A stretch of DNA of 64,000 nt from Escherichia coli. GTDB taxonomy: Bacteria; Pseudomonadota; Gammaproteobacteria; Enterobacterales; Enterobacteriaceae. Under the pieces are notes generated by a model. That model had not been told where the DNA came from. It searched no databases and saw only the letters and a program-made list of their open reading frames with translations. The stretch lies in NCBI RefSeq assembly GCF_041248615.1, contig NZ_CP158426.1; one strand, 5' to 3'. Shown piece after piece: positions 11,583 to 37,213 of the stretch (position 1 is the stretch's first letter; every line of letters starts with the position of its first letter). The translations under genes and the position numbers were made by a program.

Positions 11583-11659
<77 letters not shown>

Positions 11660-11692
11660 TCACCGTACTGCTTTTACTTCATCAAATTTGAT

Positions 11693-11769
<77 letters not shown>

Positions 11770-11802
11770 TCACCGTACTGCTTTACTTCATCAAATTTTA
11801 AT

Positions 11803-11879
<77 letters not shown>

Positions 11880-13273: not shown

Positions 13274-13371
13274 GCCGGATGCGGCGTGAACGCCTTATCC
13301 GGCCTACAAATCATGCAAATCCAAAATATTGCAGGAGTTATGTAGGCCTGATAAGCGTAGCGCATCAGGCA
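13274..13371. repeat. BIME: two REP elements in inverted orientation
   Basis: gccggatgcggcgtgaacgccttatccggcctaca (13274-13307) and tgtaggcctgataagcgtagcgcatcaggca (13341-13371) match the REP consensus. Confidence 0.8.
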
Positions 13372-16364: not shown

Positions 16365-16570
16365 AAAAAAAAGCACCGCAATTAGGCGGTGCTACATTAA
16401 TCACTATGGACAGACAGGGTAAATGTACAGGAAGTGAAAAAAGGTAGCTTTGCTACCATGGTCTGAATCGCAGACCAATTGCAAACACAACAACACAACA
16501 TCACAACCGTAAGCCAAAAGTTCACCAGAACACGCATTCCGATAAAACTTTTCGTTCCGGCTCAGGAAGT
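16365..16570 (-). ncRNA. gcvB: GcvB small regulatory RNA
   Basis: Minus strand reads ACTTCCTGAGCCGGAACGAAAAGTTTTATCGG...GTTGTGATGTTGTGTTGTTGTGTTTGCAATTGG...GCACCGCCTAATTGCGGTGCTTTTTTTT, including the G/U-rich R1 region and intrinsic terminator; divergent from gcvA as expected. Confidence 0.9.
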
Positions 16571-23714: not shown

Positions 23715-25031
23715 TCAGTTAGTTGCCGTTTGAGAACGGAAACGGGCAAAGATAAAGATGACCGCGAAGCAGAGTGCGGGGATCAGTTCAGCAGTGGGGA
23801 TGTTGCCCGCAGCGTCACTGACAAACCCCATGACCGGAGTGACAATACCGCCGCCAATAATGGTCATAACGATGAAGGACGAACCGTATTTGGTGTCCTG
23901 GCCGAGATTCTTAATGCCCAGCGAGAAGATTGTTGGGTACTGAATCGACATAAAGGCACTGCATAATGTCAGGGCTATTAAGCCCACATGACCGCCAGCG
24001 AAGGCTGAGATCAGGCACAGTGCCATAGCGATTAATGCGTAGGCTGCCAGGACTTTGTGTGGTGCGAAGCGACTGATGAGCCAGGTACCGGTGAAACGAC
24101 CAATAAAGAAGCACACCATGGTTCCGGTTAAATAGTTAGCGGCAAAGCCTGCGGTCATACCTGGAATTTCTTCTACAGCGTAGCGAATCAAATAGCTCCA
24201 GCAGGCCGTTTGCGCGCCGACATAGCAGAATTGCGCTAATACCGCCCAGCGCCAGTGACGAATACGCGCCAGACGAGAAAGCGATGCGGAGAACGATCCT
24301 TGTTTGGCGTCACTGTGATTATCACTCTGCAATGCCGGGAATTTCGTCAGCATGATCAGCAGGGCGACCAGTAACACGATAGCCACGATGATCATATAAG
24401 GTGTCTGTACCGATAATACCAGGCTGTGTTTATACGCACTCAATTGCTCTGGAGACATTTTATCGAGAACGTCTTGCGATTGATGTGGCACGTTAGACAA
24501 AATAAGACTTTGTCCAAAGACAACCGCGATAATTGCGCCAAACGAGTTAAATGTTTGCGCAAGATTTAAGCGGAAGTGACCACTGCTTTCCGGCCCTAAT
24601 ACCGTAACAAAAGGGTTTGCGGCAGTTTCCAGACAACCTAATCCGGCTGCAATAATAAATAGGCCAACTAAAAATAAGGTGTAGTTCATTATTTCTGCAG
24701 CGGGCCAGAATAATGCAGCGCCCAAGGCATATAAAAATAATCCGGTAATAATCCCTGCTTTATAACTGAGTTTTTTCATCAATATCCCAGCAGGGATTGG
24801 GATAATGAAATAACCAAAGTAAAAGGCCGATTGGATCAGGCCAGCCTGGAAATTTGTCAGCGTAAAAGCCTGCTGGAATTGAGGTAATAAAATGTCGTTA
24901 AGGTTATTGGCTACCGCCCAAAGAAAAAACAGTGAGCACAGCAGCGCGAATGGAATAATGTAACTTCTGCTTTGCCCTGCATCTTTATCTACCGCACGGT
25001 AACTCTGCGTTTGTATTGATGTGTTTCCCAT
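23715..25031 (-). CDS. fucP: L-fucose:H+ symporter (MFS)
   Basis: 438 aa polytopic membrane protein. Confidence 0.95.
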   Translation of the reverse strand: MGNTSIQTQSYRAVDKDAGQSRSYIIPFALLCSLFFLWAVANNLNDILLPQFQQAFTLTNFQAGLIQSAFYFGYFIIPIPAGILMKKLSYKAGIITGLFLYALGAALFWPAAEIMNYTLFLVGLFIIAAGLGCLETAANPFVTVLGPESSGHFRLNLAQTFNSFGAIIAVVFGQSLILSNVPHQSQDVLDKMSPEQLSAYKHSLVLSVQTPYMIIVAIVLLVALLIMLTKFPALQSDNHSDAKQGSFSASLSRLARIRHWRWAVLAQFCYVGAQTACWSYLIRYAVEEIPGMTAGFAANYLTGTMVCFFIGRFTGTWLISRFAPHKVLAAYALIAMALCLISAFAGGHVGLIALTLCSAFMSIQYPTIFSLGIKNLGQDTKYGSSFIVMTIIGGGIVTPVMGFVSDAAGNIPTAELIPALCFAVIFIFARFRSQTATN

Positions 25032-25577
25032 AGCATCCTCTTAGGTTCAGAAGCTTAAGCACGTAATCGGTTATGTTTTCAAAAGTGCAAAACCAGCGAG
25101 TTCGGGCTTCATATCAGTGAATATTTGCCTGTCAGAAATGAACTCATGGATTCATTTTCAAATAAAAAACGCTCTGTAATATGACGGCGGTCACACTTAT
25201 TAGCTGGGAGGTGACTTTATGTGACTACCATCACTTTAATAATCGAAATTTCATGCCCGTTTCAGAAAATAAATCATAAAAAACACAAACCCGATGACCG
25301 TATTAATTGTTTGTGCCGAAAACGGGCATTTCTGGCGAGGGGGAATGGAAAAATGACCGTTTTGATAAATATTTTTAAGAGCGGTCATTTTCAATAGGGT
25401 TATAAAAAGAGAACTTGCAGTTATTTACTATGATTAGTTGAACCAGGTCACAAAATATAAGCTTGTGAATTTCTTTCTGGTTAATCAGGAAGAAGATGGT
25501 GGGTAATTAAACGGCTAATTCAATAGTGTGAAAGGAACAACATTATTGCCCTGTTTTGAATCAGAGAGAGGTAGCTA
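25032..25577. promoter_or_regulatory. Divergent fucPIKUR / fucAO control region
   Basis: 546-bp AT-rich intergenic region between divergently transcribed operons; specific FucR/CRP sites not resolved by eye. Confidence 0.5.
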
Positions 25578-27505: not shown

Positions 27506-29739
<2,234 letters not shown>

Positions 29740-29796
29740 AGGAAATACATCGCGTTAAAACGGAGGAAGCGCCGCCCGAAAGCGGCGCGAAAGGAC

Positions 29797-31086
29797 TTAG
29801 CTGAACAGAGAGTAGAAGATTGCGGAGATTGCAATCAGACCCATCACGACAACGAATACGTTGCTGATGTGACCGCTGTACTTACGCATTGCCGGTACTT
29901 TCTGAATTGCGTACATCGGCATCAGGAACAGGATCATCGCGATGATTGGGCCGCCCAGGGTTTCAATCATACCCAGGATGCTCGGGTTCAGGGTGGCAAC
30001 AATCCAGGTCGTTACCAGCATGAACAGCGCAGTGATACGGTTCAGCTTGTTGATTTCGATAGACTTACCTTTACCACGCAGAGATTTAATCACCATACCG
30101 TTGAAGCCTTCACGTGCGCCCAGGTAGTGGCCGAGGAAGGATTTGGTGATAGCGATAATCGCGATAATCGGTGCCATCCACGCGATAACCGGTGCGTTAA
30201 AGTGGTTAGCCAGGTAAGACAGAATCGAGATGTTCTGCTCTTTAGCCGCAGCCAGGTCTGCCGGAGTCAGGCTCAGTACGCAGCTGAAGACGAAGAACAT
30301 TACGGTCAGCACCATCATGATGTGTGCGAATGCAAGGATCTTCGAACATTTCTGTTCTGCCATATCGCCGTACTCTTCACGCTTCGCAACGGCGAAAGAA
30401 GAGATGATCGGAGAGTGGTTGAACGAGAACACCATTACCGGAATTGCCAGCCACAGGGTCATCCACAGACCGTTTCCGGTTGCAGATGCAGTGTCCAGAG
30501 ACAGCGTTTCCAGTGCTGCGCCGTTCCACTGCGGGATCAGGTACAGAGCCAGCAGCATCAGTACGCCAACAAACGGGAATACCAGAATACTCATCGCTTT
30601 AACGATCATCTGCTCACCGAAGCGAACGATGGTCATCATACCCACGATCAGGATCAGCGACAGAATCGCACGCGGCGGTGGCGTCATACCCAGCTGGTGA
30701 GACATGAAGCTTTCAACTGTATTGGTGATTGCCACGCTATAAACCAGCAGGATCGGGTAGATAGCGAAGAAGTAGAGCAGGGTAATCAGTTTACCTGCGC
30801 CAATACCAAAGTGTTCTTCTACAACCTCGGTGATGTCTTCGCCCGGGTTTTTACCAGACAGTACGAAGCGAGTCAGACCGCGGTGAGCAAAAAATGTCAT
30901 CGGGAACGCAAGGATAGCCATGATGATCAGCGGGATCATACCGCCAACACCGGCGTTGATTGGCAGGAACAGCACGCCCGCGCCGATTGCCGTGCCGTAA
31001 AGGCCCAGCATCCACATGGTGTCTGTCTTGCGCCAGGCACTACGAGAGTCTTTCGACGCAATCGTGCTGGTTTGAGTCGTTTCCAT
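29797..31086 (-). CDS. sdaC: Serine:H+ symporter
   Basis: 429 aa polytopic membrane protein, HAAAP family. Confidence 0.95.
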
Positions 31087-31641
31087 CTATTTCTCCTGGA
31101 GGAATGCAAATAATTCAGCTTTTAGCCAGTTCAGCCCGGGAAGGTGCCTGACCGTAAAAATGAAATCTGTCTATCGGCGATGGCTTAATCATTTACCGCC
31201 GTAATAATTTGAGGGCGGAAAGATACACACAAGTTATGTATCTATCAGTGATCTTGATCCCAAATACAATAATCTACTTGGAAGATAGATTATCCCAACG
31301 CTTTACTCTGTAAATCAAAAGTAAAAGAGAATTTAAGGGCAATATTTGCCCATTAAACGACATCTGACTTCTTCCGGGGCGCGCAATATATGTAGGTTGA
31401 ACTGAAAAAATCAATACTTTTAGTTAATCATGGCGATAATTTCTTTTTCATAGCGATAAAATGTGGTTTATGAAAATAGGGAAACGTTTGCGTTACAACA
31501 TAAATTGTATGACATATTAACTGTAATGATATTTATCGCGTGAGGGTGGTAAGAAACATTCATATAACAAATGAAATAAATTGATGGGTATGTGACCAAA
31601 AACGAGAAAACCCGGCAACAAACGTCACCGGGGGAGGGAGA

Positions 31642-33006
31642 TTACGTGCAGATTTCGTAGCAAGGGATGTAGGCTGAGCCTGGCAACTTCATACGATGCT
31701 GGGCAACAAAACCCTGTAGCAGGTCATCCATACGACGCATAATCTCTTTATCGCCGTTGATTTTATAAGGACCAAACTCTTCAATGGCGCGAATACCGAC
31801 TTCTTTTACGTTACCCGCCACAATACCGGAGAACGCACGGCGCAGGTCGGCAGCCAGCACTTCAACGGGTTGATCCGGGTAAAGCTTCAGATTAGCCATA
31901 TTCTCGTGAGACGGCTCAAACGGCATTTGCAAATCTGGCGCAATGCGCATTGACCAGTTAAAGCTGTAGGCATCGCCTGTGTCGCGGCGATTTTCTTTCA
32001 CCAGCGGCATCGATTTTTTCATCTGACGAGCGACTTCAGCGGCGTCATCAATGATGATGCGGTAATGGCGGCGCGCGTTTTCACCCAACGTATGCACGAC
32101 AAACTCGTCCAGTACGCGGAAGTAGTCGGCGCTCTCTTTCGGGCCGGTGAGGATCAATGGTAAAACCTGATCTTTGTTGGCCGGGTTCATTAAAATTCCC
32201 AGCAAATACAGCAACTCTTCTGCCGTACCCACACCGCCAGGGAAGATAATGATACCGTGAGCGATACGGACAAACGCTTCCAGACGTTTTTCGATATCCG
32301 GCATGATGATCAATTCGTTGACCAGCGGGTTAGGCGGTTCAGCGGCGATAATCGACGGCTCTGTCATACCAATAAAACGACTGTCTTTGTAACGCTGCTG
32401 TGCGTGTCCGACCGCAGCGCCTTTCATCGGCGCTTCCATCGCTCCCGGACCACAGCCGGTGCAGATATTCAGCTCACGCAGGCCCAGCTGATTCCCGACG
32501 CGACGGGCATACAAATACTCGTTTTCGTTAATTGAGTGCCCGCCCCAGCAGACCACCATATTTGGCGCTTCACCAACATGCAGCGCGCGAGCGTTACGCA
32601 AGATGGAAAAGACCAGGTTAGTGATGTGGACGGAGTTGTCGAGATTCAGGTTGGGAAAACGAACAGTATTATGGATTTGCCCGTAAACGAAGAGAATGTC
32701 GCGCAGAACCGCGAACAAGTTGGCCTGCAAAGCGCGAATAATTCGCCCATCGACAAAAGCCTCTTCCGGGGGATTAATCAGTTCCAGCTTTACGCCGCGT
32801 TCACGGCGCAAGACGTTAATATCGAAATTTTCAAAACGAGACAGCAATTCTTTGCTGTTATCGGTCAAACTACCGGAGTTCAGTACGGCAAGTGAACAGT
32901 TGCGAAACAGTTGATAGAGGTCGCTGCTGGCGGTGCGTTTAAGCATATCCACTTCCAGCTGCGACAACATATCCATGGAGCCAAGCGGGCTAATATGTGT
33001 AATCAA
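31642..33006 (-). CDS. ppnN: Pyrimidine/purine nucleotide 5'-monophosphate nucleosidase (LOG family)
   Basis: 454 aa (formerly ygdH). Confidence 0.9.
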
Positions 33007-34789: not shown

Positions 34790-35155
34790 GTCGACAGGGA
34801 GTCAGACAACGAAGTGAACATCAGGATGATGACACTTCTGAAGGACACACCAGGATGGTGTTTCAGGGAAAGGCTTCTGGATGAAGCGAAGAGGATGACG
34901 CAGGACGCGTTAAAGGACACCTCCAGGATGGAGAATGAGAACCGGTCAGGATGATTCGGTGGGTCAGGAAGGCCAGGGACACTTCAGGATGAAGTATCAC
35001 ATCGGGGTGGTGTGAGCAGGAAGCAATAGTTCAGGATGAACGATTGGCCGCAAGGCCAGAGGAAAAGTTGTCAAGGATGAGCAGGGAGCAACAAAAGTAG
35101 CTGGAATGCTGCGAAACGAACCGGGAGCACTGTGAATACAGTGCTCCCTTTTTTT
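34790..35155 (+). ncRNA. csrB: CsrB small RNA (CsrA-sequestering)
   Basis: Begins GTCGACAGGGAGTCAGACAACGAAGTGAACATCAGGATGATG; about 17-18 CAGGA(U/A)G / AGGA motifs seen; ends in the GGGAGCACTGTGAATACAGTGCTCCCTTTTTTT terminator; lies between syd and yqcC. Confidence 0.9.
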
Positions 35156-35200
35156 ATTCCTGCTATCCTTCGCGGCAGTTTTTCTTATTGAGGTTGCTTT

Positions 35201-36779: not shown

Positions 36780-37213
36780 TATGTTCAGCGAGCGGTAAAT
36801 GCCGTTTTAGCGGTGCTGAATCGAATCTTTTCAGGCAAATGCCAGTAAAAACTGCTTCATAGCGCGGATTTTTACTGGCGTTTGCCTGGAGTCAAGCGAT
36901 CCATTTCATACTCTTCTTTATTTCTTCGTTTTAACCCTTCCTTTCTTGTTCTTGTTTTCATTTCCGTGAAGTGGATTCCACCGTCCAGGGCTAATGCCAA
37001 AATCGGGCCTCATTGAACGCATTAATGTTGTGTTGTTGCACGGTGAGCCGCTATGGCGCGCTTTTTATACTGCTATTGCCAGATATAAACACGCGCCGTA
37101 TTCGGCGAACGACCTATAAAAACGGCAAAAAACACCCTACGTCACCTCTGATTTCCTGGCGATGTCGCAGTCCAGAGTGAGCGTGGCTAACGCGAATTTT
37201 CAGGAGTGCAACA

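Follow-up and report, generated by a model that had tools for sequence, protein, structure and literature searches.

The long ppnN-sdaC gap of Escherichia coli as a probable composite control region for the serine operon sdaCB

The 555-bp gap between ppnN and sdaC in E. coli is probably a composite control region for sdaCB, the operon for serine uptake and deamination, which begins after the ppnN terminator and contains no separate gene. We analysed the gap within a stretch of 64,000 nucleotides of the E. coli contig NZ_CP158426.1, referred to here as the window. Most of the parts of this apparently empty DNA have been published, so no new gene model is needed, and the gap is an ordinary, already-characterised E. 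coli regulatory region. The first-pass annotation of the window had proposed multi-factor control of the sdaC operon, and this is already in print: YieP acts at two sites, Lrp is found by ChIP, CRP is bound in vivo and the small RNA ArcZ acts at the ribosome binding site.

The gap (31087-31641) separates sdaC (29797-31086) from ppnN (31642-33006), both on the minus strand. The equivalent region of K-12 is 2927673-2928228, 556 bp, and the current K-12 RefSeq annotates no feature within it, small proteins included. The description of the gap as unusually long and AT-rich was accurate. Its GC content is 0.373, compared with 0.522 in sdaC, 0.513 in ppnN and 0.508 in the whole window, and local minima over 200 nt fall to 0.29. 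It ranks second in length among 45 nearby gaps, whose median is 57 bp; for this ranking we used the annotated, complete genome of a close relative, in which the gene coordinates around the locus equal those of the window. The other long gaps nearby are the longest, of 621 bp, which carries csrB, one of 546 bp that is the divergent fuc control region, and one of 350 bp that carries gcvB.

The length is a trait of the family, with gaps of 436-648 bp in all 77 ppnN-sdaC loci that we examined in the Enterobacteriaceae, and within the species the gap was found, essentially as a single copy, in 5425 of 5426 complete genomes. The best conserved portion across the 77 loci runs from -66 to +24 around the proximal transcription start site (TSS), while 31300-31600 shows low conservation, a few blocks excepted. 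As the window gap is 98% identical to that of K-12, K-12 data could be carried over by a simple coordinate map. The TSS at 31213, CRP occupancy, the binding and effect of YieP, the up-mutations in P2, ArcZ repression and the ppnN 3' end are all published data mapped in this way; they come from K-12, enterotoxigenic E. coli (ETEC) and Salmonella rather than from the exact strain of the window. The K-12 sdaCB control region, with its YieP, Lrp, CRP and PsdaC* elements, and the Salmonella ArcZ-sdaC system describe the same locus. Compared with K-12, both YieP sites, the CRP site, the distal -10 and the ribosome binding site with its ArcZ site are unchanged in the window.

Read in the direction of sdaC, the first element is the end of the ppnN transcript.

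31598-31632, minus strand: ppnN intrinsic terminator from the terminator scan, hairpin CCCGGTGACGTTTGTTGCCGGG (31632-31611) followed by the run TTTTCTCGTTTTT

Its 9-bp stem with six GC pairs, followed by TTTTCTCGTT, has the form of an intrinsic terminator. The primary 3' end of ygdH in Term-seq data, K-12 2927709, falls at 31606, within the U run, and the same K-12 position is additionally listed as a Rho termination region with a score of 2.2. The terminator is leaky, as a ppnN-sdaC read-through transcript is listed.

The end of the gap nearest sdaC holds the best conserved promoter elements.

31213-31225, minus strand: core of the proximal promoter P1, -10 TATCTT (31225-31220), TSS 31213
31247-31262, no strand assigned: CRP site TGGGATCAAGATCACT, centre 31254.5, at -41.5 from the proximal TSS
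31265-31279, no strand assigned: conserved block AAGTAGATTATTGTA (GATTATTGCA in most genera), -52 to -66 from the proximal TSS

SMRT-Cappable-seq places the start of sdaC (b2796) at K-12 2928102, which corresponds to 31213, a position that we had predicted from conservation before the published table was found. The sequence TGTATCTTTCCG in the P1 core is almost invariant among genera. The CRP site is nearly invariant across the 77 loci and matches the consensus TGTGA-N6-TCACA at eight of ten core positions; a second predicted CRP site, at -26.5, is poorly conserved.

Class II CRP-dependent promoters, of which galP1 and melR are examples, have CRP in a position overlapping the -35 region. P1 likewise has CRP centred at -41.5, no recognisable -35 and an imperfect -10. 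A consensus match, its position relative to a -10 and occupancy in vivo, the last from the ETEC literature, are thus all found at P1, and its geometry suggests a class II CRP promoter. CRP ChIP-seq in ETEC gave a peak at sdaC, and the site assigned to it, AGTGATCTTGATCTCA, is the reverse complement of TGGGATCAAGATCACT in K-12-type strains.

The block upstream of the CRP site has 80-99% identity across the 77 loci and differs from the Lrp consensus at three positions. ChIP has shown enrichment of Lrp at sdaC and ygdH, and PMC8282354 mentions an EcoCyc Lrp site about 200 bp downstream of the YieP peak. The block may bind Lrp. Matches to either consensus occur in the window at chance frequency, 30 found against 26 expected for CRP with two mismatches and 81 found against 81 expected for Lrp with three. 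We therefore did not use such matches as evidence alone, and took the weight from conservation and published occupancy. CRP at P1 cannot explain everything, as sdaC mRNA rises about 20-fold from minimal medium to glucose rich defined medium (PMC8282354), where CRP activity should be low.

Further upstream, the promoter scan identified a second, putative promoter.

31385-31414, minus strand: distal sigma-70-type promoter P2, -35 TTGATT (31414-31409), 18-bp spacer, -10 TATATT (31390-31385)

P2 has a GC-rich discriminator and a predicted TSS near 31378, 165 bp from that of P1, which would give a leader of about 292 nt. Among published mutations, the PsdaC* insertions +A (K-12 2927924, equivalent to 31391) and +ATT (2927928, equivalent to 31387) fall within or next to the P2 -10, about 175 bp upstream of the TSS at 31213. 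They raise reporter activity, increase expression without cAMP and let a cya mutant, which is otherwise unable to use serine, grow on it. The +ATT insertion at 31387 would convert the P2 -10 to TATAAT. No start at P2 is among the TSSs listed in the SMRT-Cappable-seq table, and in the wild type P2 may be weak or silent. One published account notes that no sdaC promoter had been verified experimentally by conventional means and refers the annotated TSS to the promoter analysis of Huerta and Collado-Vides 2003. The consensus scan returned two promoter-like sites on the sdaC strand against 2.9 expected from shuffled sequence. The second of these, TTGATT-18-GATAAT (31318-31289), was dropped, as neither conservation nor the TSS data support it. 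We infer a division of labour in which P1 serves carbon limitation through CRP and P2 is independent of CRP and possibly the target of YieP.

It could be argued that sdaC has a single distal promoter, starting near 31378, and that the region of the CRP site acts within a transcribed leader of about 292 nt, as a roadblock or as RNA. Such promoter mutations as have been defined genetically do lie in or beside the distal -10, and their authors treat the distal promoter as the sdaC promoter. A hairpin formed by TTTCCGCC and GGCGG(T)AAA also spans 31213, and only transcripts begun further upstream could fold into it. However, the listed sdaC TSS is 31213 and not 31378, and from this start the CRP site is exactly at -41.5, with a suitably spaced and conserved -10. 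CRP is also reported as a regulator of the sdaC promoter, Hollands 2007 being cited for this, and in a published regulatory model the rule for sdaC requires Crp. The up-mutations come from selection in a cya background, where a CRP-dependent promoter would be silent and an alternative promoter recruited. Folding of the leader is unremarkable, with z = +0.31 for 144 nt and z = -1.78 for the 309 nt that a distal start would transcribe. A distal promoter acting alone is therefore unlikely, and we favour a control region with two promoters.

Between the ppnN terminator and P2 lie the two binding sites of YieP.

31558-31572, no strand assigned: YieP binding site 1, ATTTGTTATATGAAT as read on the sdaC sense strand, centre -352 from the proximal TSS
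31503-31517, no strand assigned: YieP binding site 2, ATATGTCATACAATT, centre -297 from the proximal TSS

The published sequence of each site is unchanged in the window. Across the 77 loci, site 1 is not conserved outside Escherichia, and in other genera site 2 is conserved only in part. YieP at sdaC is known from an IPOD-HR peak, a ChIP-exo peak and an EMSA shift, and scrambling both sites lowered reporter activity in a wild-type background (PMC8282354). With about 300-350 bp to P1 and about 130-190 bp to P2, the sites are more remote than would be expected of a simple activator.

Close to YieP site 2, at a distance of 9 bp, is the one item in the region that is possibly new.

31478-31493 (K-12 2927822-2927837), no strand assigned: PurR-type (LacI-family) operator-like box ACGCAAACGTTTCCCT, centre -272.5 from the proximal TSS

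The box has two mismatches against ACGCAAACGTTTGCGT, and 0.07 such sites are expected per 64 kb. Across 100 kb of K-12, all the sites with two or fewer mismatches to the PUR box were upstream of purC, purMN or purL. The sdaC box shares with the operators of the purine regulon the 16-bp palindrome and the central AAACGTTT. It equals the purMN and purL boxes in its number of mismatches and is closer to the consensus than the K-12 glyA box. Many genera carry the variant ACGCAAACGATTACCT in front of sdaC, and this very sequence forms the box 119 bp upstream of glyA in E. coli.

The position of the box is fixed. It lies 272.5-275.5 bp from +1 in 47 loci, while its distance from the ppnN stop codon ranges from 52 to 262 bp according to genus. 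That the distance from box to TSS stays within 3 bp in these loci though the sequence diverges argues for a constraint on spacing. In most Enterobacteriaceae, about 26 helical turns (273 bp) separate the box from the sdaC start downstream of it.

Classical PurR operators overlap promoters or act downstream as roadblocks. The sdaC box has the 16-bp palindrome of such an operator, but instead of overlapping a promoter or lying just downstream of one it is 272 bp upstream of the proximal TSS; from the predicted distal TSS its centre is at -107.5. The likeness of the box to known operators suggests that PurR could bind it. It is possible, though we hold this tentatively, that ACGCAAACGTTTCCCT is a functional PurR operator which would place the serine importer and deaminase operon in the purine regulon with glyA, acting at long range or as a roadblock to read-through from ppnN. 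Serine supplies one-carbon units and glycine for purine synthesis. Purines are present in the medium where sdaC expression is highest, an observation that counts against a role for PurR. We found no report linking PurR to sdaC or ygdH in the searchable literature. In a published pull-down with sdaC as bait, the lysate had been passed beforehand over a purR-promoter probe and only a band of about 25 kDa was analysed, so the experiment does not exclude PurR.

The fixed spacing also bears on whether most of the gap does anything at all. It might be largely functionless AT-rich spacer, coated by nucleoid proteins such as H-NS and Lrp, with only the last 200 bp or so of importance. This would fit the low conservation of 31300-31600, the variable length of the part between the ppnN stop codon and the box, and the motif matches that taken singly are at chance. 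Against it, the distance from box to TSS is invariant and the PurR-type box is far above chance, while scrambling both YieP sites lowers reporter activity and mutations 175 bp upstream of the TSS alter expression. A mere spacer thus seems improbable.

Transcripts from P1 begin with a leader that runs to the sdaC start codon.

31087-31213, minus strand: 5' leader of sdaC in the transcript from P1, 127 nt (105-132 nt in other genera)
31088-31099, minus strand: Shine-Dalgarno region CCAGGAGAAATA and ArcZ pairing site, -13 to -2
31175-31201, minus strand: leader stem-loop 1, CGGCGGT (31201-31195) with ATCGCCG (31181-31175) around a 13-nt loop, in the minimum free energy structure
31124-31153, minus strand: leader stem-loop 2, GGTCAG (31153-31148) with CTGGCT (31129-31124); GTCAGG...CCTGAC in other genera

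The gap had been read as implying a long 5' UTR. The leader is moderately long, at 127 nt from the listed TSS, but it is not 555 nt and would reach about 292 nt only from the distal promoter. The rest of the 555 bp, about 430 bp, consists of DNA upstream of the start site together with the ppnN terminator.

In Salmonella, ArcZ represses sdaC directly by pairing at -13 to -2, at the ribosome binding site, and in E. coli overexpression of ArcZ lowers sdaC mRNA by more than 50%. The Shine-Dalgarno and ArcZ site is 80-99% conserved across the 77 loci. The 5' end of processed E. coli ArcZ, UUUCCCUGG, pairs with CCAGGAGAAA (31099-31090) with one bulge, giving the seed complementarity expected of a target. 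The duplex energy of full-length ArcZ was no better than with shuffled leaders, 13% of which were as good; as this is not significant, the support comes from the seed match and the literature.

RNAalifold found no consensus structure in either of two alignments, and we inspected the stems by hand because pairing registers vary between clades. The first 48 nt of the leader have a mean z of -1.03, with 84% of sequences below 0. Most genera form a hairpin round an A-rich loop in the region of stem-loop 1, in differing registers, which hints weakly at a conserved structure. For stem-loop 2, 31 sequences were aligned with MAFFT; 81% of cells were paired, compared with 13-43% when the partner was slid. 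Five of the six pairs had changed on both sides, and the 16 compensatory cells were reached by none of 500 shuffles. Stem-loop 2 is missing from Klebsiella/Raoultella and Kluyvera, and in the E. coli row two of the six aligned pairs are unpaired, the GGTCAG/CTGGCT pairing being an alternative register. Covariation in the alignment thus lends moderate support to stem-loop 2 as a putative structure. As a weaker addition to the model, the 127-nt leader might hold a conserved structured element, made up of the two stem-loops and an AAUUUCA box, with a regulatory role of its own.

Two further sequences bear on whether the gap encodes a peptide or an RNA.

31115-31192, minus strand: candidate 25-codon upstream ORF MIKPSPIDRFHFYGQAPSRAELAKS from the ORF list, within the leader
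31337-31351, minus strand: palindrome or hairpin GGGCAAATATTGCCC in the 309-nt fold, present in part of Escherichia only

A leader peptide had been raised as one explanation of the gap. It might control sdaCB by attenuation or stalling, as tnaC does, from the 25-codon ORF at 31192-31115 or a 29-codon ORF from 31363. Like the leader of tnaC-tnaAB, that of sdaC precedes an operon for a catabolic transporter and enzyme and has small ORFs on the sense strand, both of them downstream of a promoter. All four Escherichia sequences retain the 25-codon ORF, with four synonymous and four non-synonymous differences by hand count, and other genera have a 10-codon ORF (MVAFAPVNSL, MIAFAPQISG) in 48 of the 77 loci, its length kept across a 1-nt indel. 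However, start codons are not conserved between genera: the ATGs at 31192 and 31363 are limited to Escherichia, the former becoming ATT or ATC in most other genera, and a search for ATG-anchored ORFs across the 77 loci found none in common with E. coli. The 10-codon block is absent as an ORF in E. coli and varies at the first codon position rather than at the wobble position. Shine-Dalgarno sequences are poor, with GGCGG 3 nt from one ATG and none for the 10-codon ORF. In E. coli neither of the two ORFs is followed by a terminator or a 3' end, and we found neither a conserved start, frame and ribosome binding site nor a regulated terminator or Rho site downstream. The observation that the gap has no convincing ORF agrees with our results, as its eight ORFs, of 22-46 aa, had no Pfam or NCBIfam match and were not conserved outside Escherichia; no small protein is annotated there in K-12. 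Unlike tnaC, the sdaC leader lacks a conserved small ORF, a 3' end of the intrinsic or Rho-dependent type, and a stalling motif. On present evidence it does not work like tnaC, and control by a leader peptide is very unlikely.

An unannotated small RNA, as in the neighbouring csrB and gcvB gaps, fares worse still. Two of the five longest gaps nearby carry small RNA genes, and a promoter-like site followed some 30 nt on by the GGGCAAATATTGCCC hairpin and a T-rich stretch (31351-31310) superficially resembles a short transcription unit. In two other Escherichia genomes this hairpin is disrupted, and in other genera the block TAGCCTTCGCGCCC takes its place; the hairpin does not have the features of a terminator and no Term-seq 3' end follows it. 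The small RNA prediction suggested as a check found nothing: at the gathering score over the whole window Rfam had no match in the gap, and at a permissive E-value over 30500-32200 nothing reached E = 1, the best hit scoring 16 bits against a threshold of 80. From 31597 to the start of sdaC, Term-seq tables for three growth conditions contain no 3' end; neither a reverse-strand start nor an additional forward start in the gap appears in the TSS table; and the terminator scan found the ppnN terminator as the gap's only terminator-like site, with none in the leader. With no promoter and 3' end of its own, no RNA family or conserved structure and no annotation in K-12, an independent small RNA gene in the gap is the least probable explanation, close to dismissal.

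The composite control region may then be pictured as follows. A leaky ppnN terminator would open the region in the direction of sdaC, followed by a stretch of variable length that in Escherichia holds the two YieP activator sites. A module of conserved length (about 273 bp) would come next, with the PurR-type box at its start and P2 inside it. It would lead to the highly conserved P1, with CRP-cAMP at -41.5 and an upstream conserved block that may bind Lrp. The 127-nt leader would end in a Shine-Dalgarno region that can be masked by the Hfq-dependent small RNA ArcZ.

The main result is a negative one, in that a gap close to two that bear small RNAs is ordinary regulatory DNA. What is added to the known sdaCB region is a single coordinate frame, in which two promoters, CRP at -41.5, the PurR-type box and a module of fixed length can be seen together. 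The promoter mutated in experimental-evolution studies, at the distal -10, is not the one whose start is seen by SMRT-Cappable-seq, which is relevant to the reading of sdaC reporter data. Through the PurR-type box, a connection of serine uptake with purine status could be tested cheaply. The box also affects the reading of the occupancy peak seen only in rich medium: if the box is a PurR operator, this 'orphan' peak, attributed to YieP, would be partly due to PurR.

The 555-bp gap between ppnN and sdaC (31087-31641) is the known sdaCB control region together with the ppnN terminator. The window runs opposite to E. coli K-12, and its features here are:

28372-29739, minus strand, sdaB
29797-31086, minus strand, sdaC
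31642-33006, minus strand, ppnN (ygdH in K-12 papers)
same neighbourhood, minus strand, queF
31632-31611, ppnN terminator hairpin, then a U run (terminator scan)
31572-31558, YieP site 1 (Freddolino and colleagues, PMC8282354)
31517-31503, YieP site 2 (Freddolino and colleagues, PMC8282354)

The K-12 counterpart, 556 bp (2927673-2928228), contains no annotated feature. The two are 98% identical, with a sole 1-bp indel beside the ppnN stop, and positions up to 31636 convert as K-12 = 2928229 + 31086 - window. Of 5426 complete E. coli genomes, 5425 carry the region, essentially as a single copy. The first-pass annotation had called the gap unusually long and AT-rich, and it is: its GC fraction of 0.373 compares with 0.51-0.52 for the genes on either side, and its length ranks second among the 45 annotated gaps of a 50-kb neighbourhood whose median gap is 57 bp. 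Since the longest gap contains csrB and the fifth gcvB (the third being the divergent fuc control region), suspecting a small RNA was reasonable beforehand.

Among these neighbours, csrB (34799-35158, plus strand; Rfam CsrB, 383 bits) occupies most of the 621-bp syd-yqcC gap, and the 350-bp ygdI-gcvA gap contains gcvB (16365-16570, minus strand; Rfam GcvB, 199 bits). csrB is annotated in K-12; CFSAN061771, the closest complete genome, has no feature for either in its RefSeq record. The fucP/fucA divergent region (25031-25576) is 546 bp at 37% GC, and the yqcA-gudP gap (36780-37213) is 434 bp at 46% GC. The 3' end of mltA (13307-13349, plus strand) matches the ES036 (CssrF) sRNA in Rfam (46.5 bits, threshold 37.6). 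Three identical tRNA genes (11586-11879, minus strand), tRNA-Met by the related genome's annotation, lie about 158 bp lower than in CFSAN061771, and coordinates match again from mltA onward. Indels close to the tRNA cluster thus separate the window from that strain.

A protein-anchored scan returned 80 Enterobacteriaceae loci; in 77, ppnN directly precedes sdaC, and the gap there measures 436-648 bp. In the MAFFT alignment conservation was highest at 31277-31190, which reads AGTgGATTATTGCA-TTTGnGATCnnGATCACTGA-(17 nt)-TGTATCTTTCCGCC, and at the RBS. From this conservation, before the table of transcription start sites (TSSs) was found, we predicted a start at about 31213 with TATCTT (31225-31220) as its -10 element, placing the CRP site centre (31254.5) at -41.5. 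SMRT-Cappable-seq puts the sdaC TSS at K-12 2928102, window 31213, matching the prediction to the base. Two sites, AGTGATCTTGATCTCA and AGTTATGTATCTATCA, were assigned to a published CRP ChIP-seq peak at ETEC sdaC and correspond here to 31262-31247 and 31247-31232. Lrp ChIP enrichment has been published for sdaC and ygdH. The CRP, Lrp and promoter motif matches each occur at chance frequency alone and carry weight because of conservation and published occupancy. From the agreement of predicted start, CRP spacing and published TSS we take this proximal promoter, P1, to be of the class II CRP type; its leader is 127 nt long (other genera: 105-132 nt).

An inverted repeat, TTTCCGCC...GGCGG(T)AAA (31192-31221, minus strand), spans the mapped TSS, and so exists as RNA only in transcripts begun upstream. 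Its 3' arm varies by genus, apparently still pairing in some register with the invariant 5' arm.

Further upstream, YieP retards this DNA in EMSA and its ChIP-exo peak coincides with an IPOD-HR peak; reporter output drops when both YieP sites are scrambled or yieP is deleted (PMC8282354). The published PsdaC* insertions, selected in a cya mutant (K-12 2927924 +A and 2927928 +ATT), increase reporter activity and let the mutant grow on serine. They map to 31391 and 31387, in or beside a TATATT (31390-31385) that has a GC-rich discriminator and is separated from TTGATT by an 18-bp spacer; the +ATT insertion at its position would create TATAAT. This distal promoter, P2 (predicted TSS about 31378), lies 165 bp upstream of P1. 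Salmonella shares the layout (TTGATT-18-TATCTT); other genera differ. Multi-factor control of sdaC, as first proposed, was right, with published YieP, CRP, Lrp and ArcZ data mapping to the region. The proposed long 5' UTR holds modestly, at 127 nt from P1 or about 292 nt from P2, and no further.

In the distal half of the gap, conservation is highest in the block ACGCAAACGTTTCCCT (31493-31478). It departs from the palindromic PurR consensus at two positions, a match expected by chance 0.07 times per 64 kb. In a calibration scan of 100 kb of K-12, all sites with at most two mismatches lay upstream of purC (one mismatch), purMN (two) or purL (two). We judged operator likeness from this calibration and the general appearance of the PUR box. 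The box in front of E. coli glyA has three mismatches, and exactly the same sequence, ACGCAAACGATTACCT, is the variant that precedes sdaC in Enterobacter, Citrobacter, Lelliottia and others. In 47 loci with a box of at most four mismatches, the box centre lies 272.5-275.5 bp from the proximal +1, and anything from 52 to 262 bp separates the box from the ppnN stop. The gap thus varies in length only on the ppnN side of the box, and the module from box to promoter has essentially no indels. From its sequence we infer that the block may be a PurR site. An occupancy peak 9 bp from it appears in rich but not minimal medium, the pattern also seen for PurR sites (PMC8282354). In the literature searched, no report connected PurR with sdaC or ygdH; the sdaC-bait pull-down examined a ~25-kDa band only, from lysate that had first been applied to a purR-promoter probe (PMC8282354). 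The distance from both start sites argues against a simple repressor role, as does sdaC expression being highest in purine-containing rich medium (PMC8282354).

E. coli sdaC mRNA falls on ArcZ overexpression, and the published ArcZ pairing at -13 to -2 of sdaC has its complementary stretch in the window. Single-sequence folding of the leader was unremarkable and RNAalifold on leader alignments gave no consensus structure. By inspection, most genera carry a stem GTCAGG...CCTGAC, with many compensatory variants, 25-70 nt upstream of the ATG. In a structure-blind alignment 81% of cells of this stem-loop 2 (31153-31124) were paired, against 13-43% with the partner slid, and both sides changed in five of six pairs. 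The E. coli equivalent is GGTCAG/CTGGCT (31153-31148/31129-31124); as two of the six aligned pairs are unpaired in the E. coli row, this pairing is an alternative register. These patterns moderately support stem-loop 2 as a conserved leader structure. Stem-loop 1 (31201-31175), a 5'-proximal hairpin around an A-rich loop, is common across genera in differing registers, and its energy signal (mean z = -1.03) weakly supports conservation; that the loop docks Hfq is a guess.

In Citrobacter and Salmonella TTTTT(A) directly follows stem-loop 2, e.g. TCAGGAATTTTTTCCTGATTTTTAGC (compared loci L007, about 2955-2983; L021 and L028, about 2935-2975; L010, Salmonella, about 2936-2977), an arrangement resembling an intrinsic terminator or attenuator shortly before the RBS. 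In E. coli there is neither a T run nor a 3' end at this place.

On the ppnN side of the gap, Term-seq places the ygdH 3' end at K-12 2927709 (window 31606), also tabulated as a Rho termination region (score 2.2), and a ppnN-sdaC read-through transcript exists in the published transcript table. Within the operon, a strong Term-seq 3' end at K-12 2929551 (about 29764), 25 nt upstream of sdaB, follows a hairpin-like CGCGCCGCTTTCGGGCGGCGC in the 57-bp sdaC-sdaB spacer (29740-29796). A terminator or processing site is suggested here, and it could uncouple the two genes. Other 3' ends fall inside sdaC (K-12 2928350 and 2928864).

An unannotated small RNA, the other first-pass proposal, is unsupported: no Rfam family matched in the gap, the TSS table shows no extra start on either strand, the ppnN terminator is the only terminator-like site or Term-seq 3' end, and the hairpin at 31351-31337 in E. 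coli, GGGCAAATATTGCCC, is disrupted in two further Escherichia genomes and does not occur elsewhere. The alternative, a leader peptide, is likewise unsupported, as the gap's ORFs (at most 46 aa) match no protein family and the two on the sense strand downstream of a promoter (ATG 31363, 29 codons; ATG 31192, 25 codons) have no start codon outside Escherichia.

Between P2 and P1, loci from beyond Escherichia (L013, L010, L008 and 45 others) share a conserved GC-rich block, AATGnTAGCCTTCGCGCCC(G/A)TAAAT, which aligns to about 31354-31325, where E. coli carries the palindrome GGGCAAATATTGCCC instead. A 10-codon ORF from this block (MVAFAPVNSL, MIAFAPQISG) is present in 48 of 77 loci, its length kept across a 1-nt indel; it has no Shine-Dalgarno sequence.

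What this analysis adds to a known control region is the PurR-type box and the two-promoter reading of sdaC, each small and testable.
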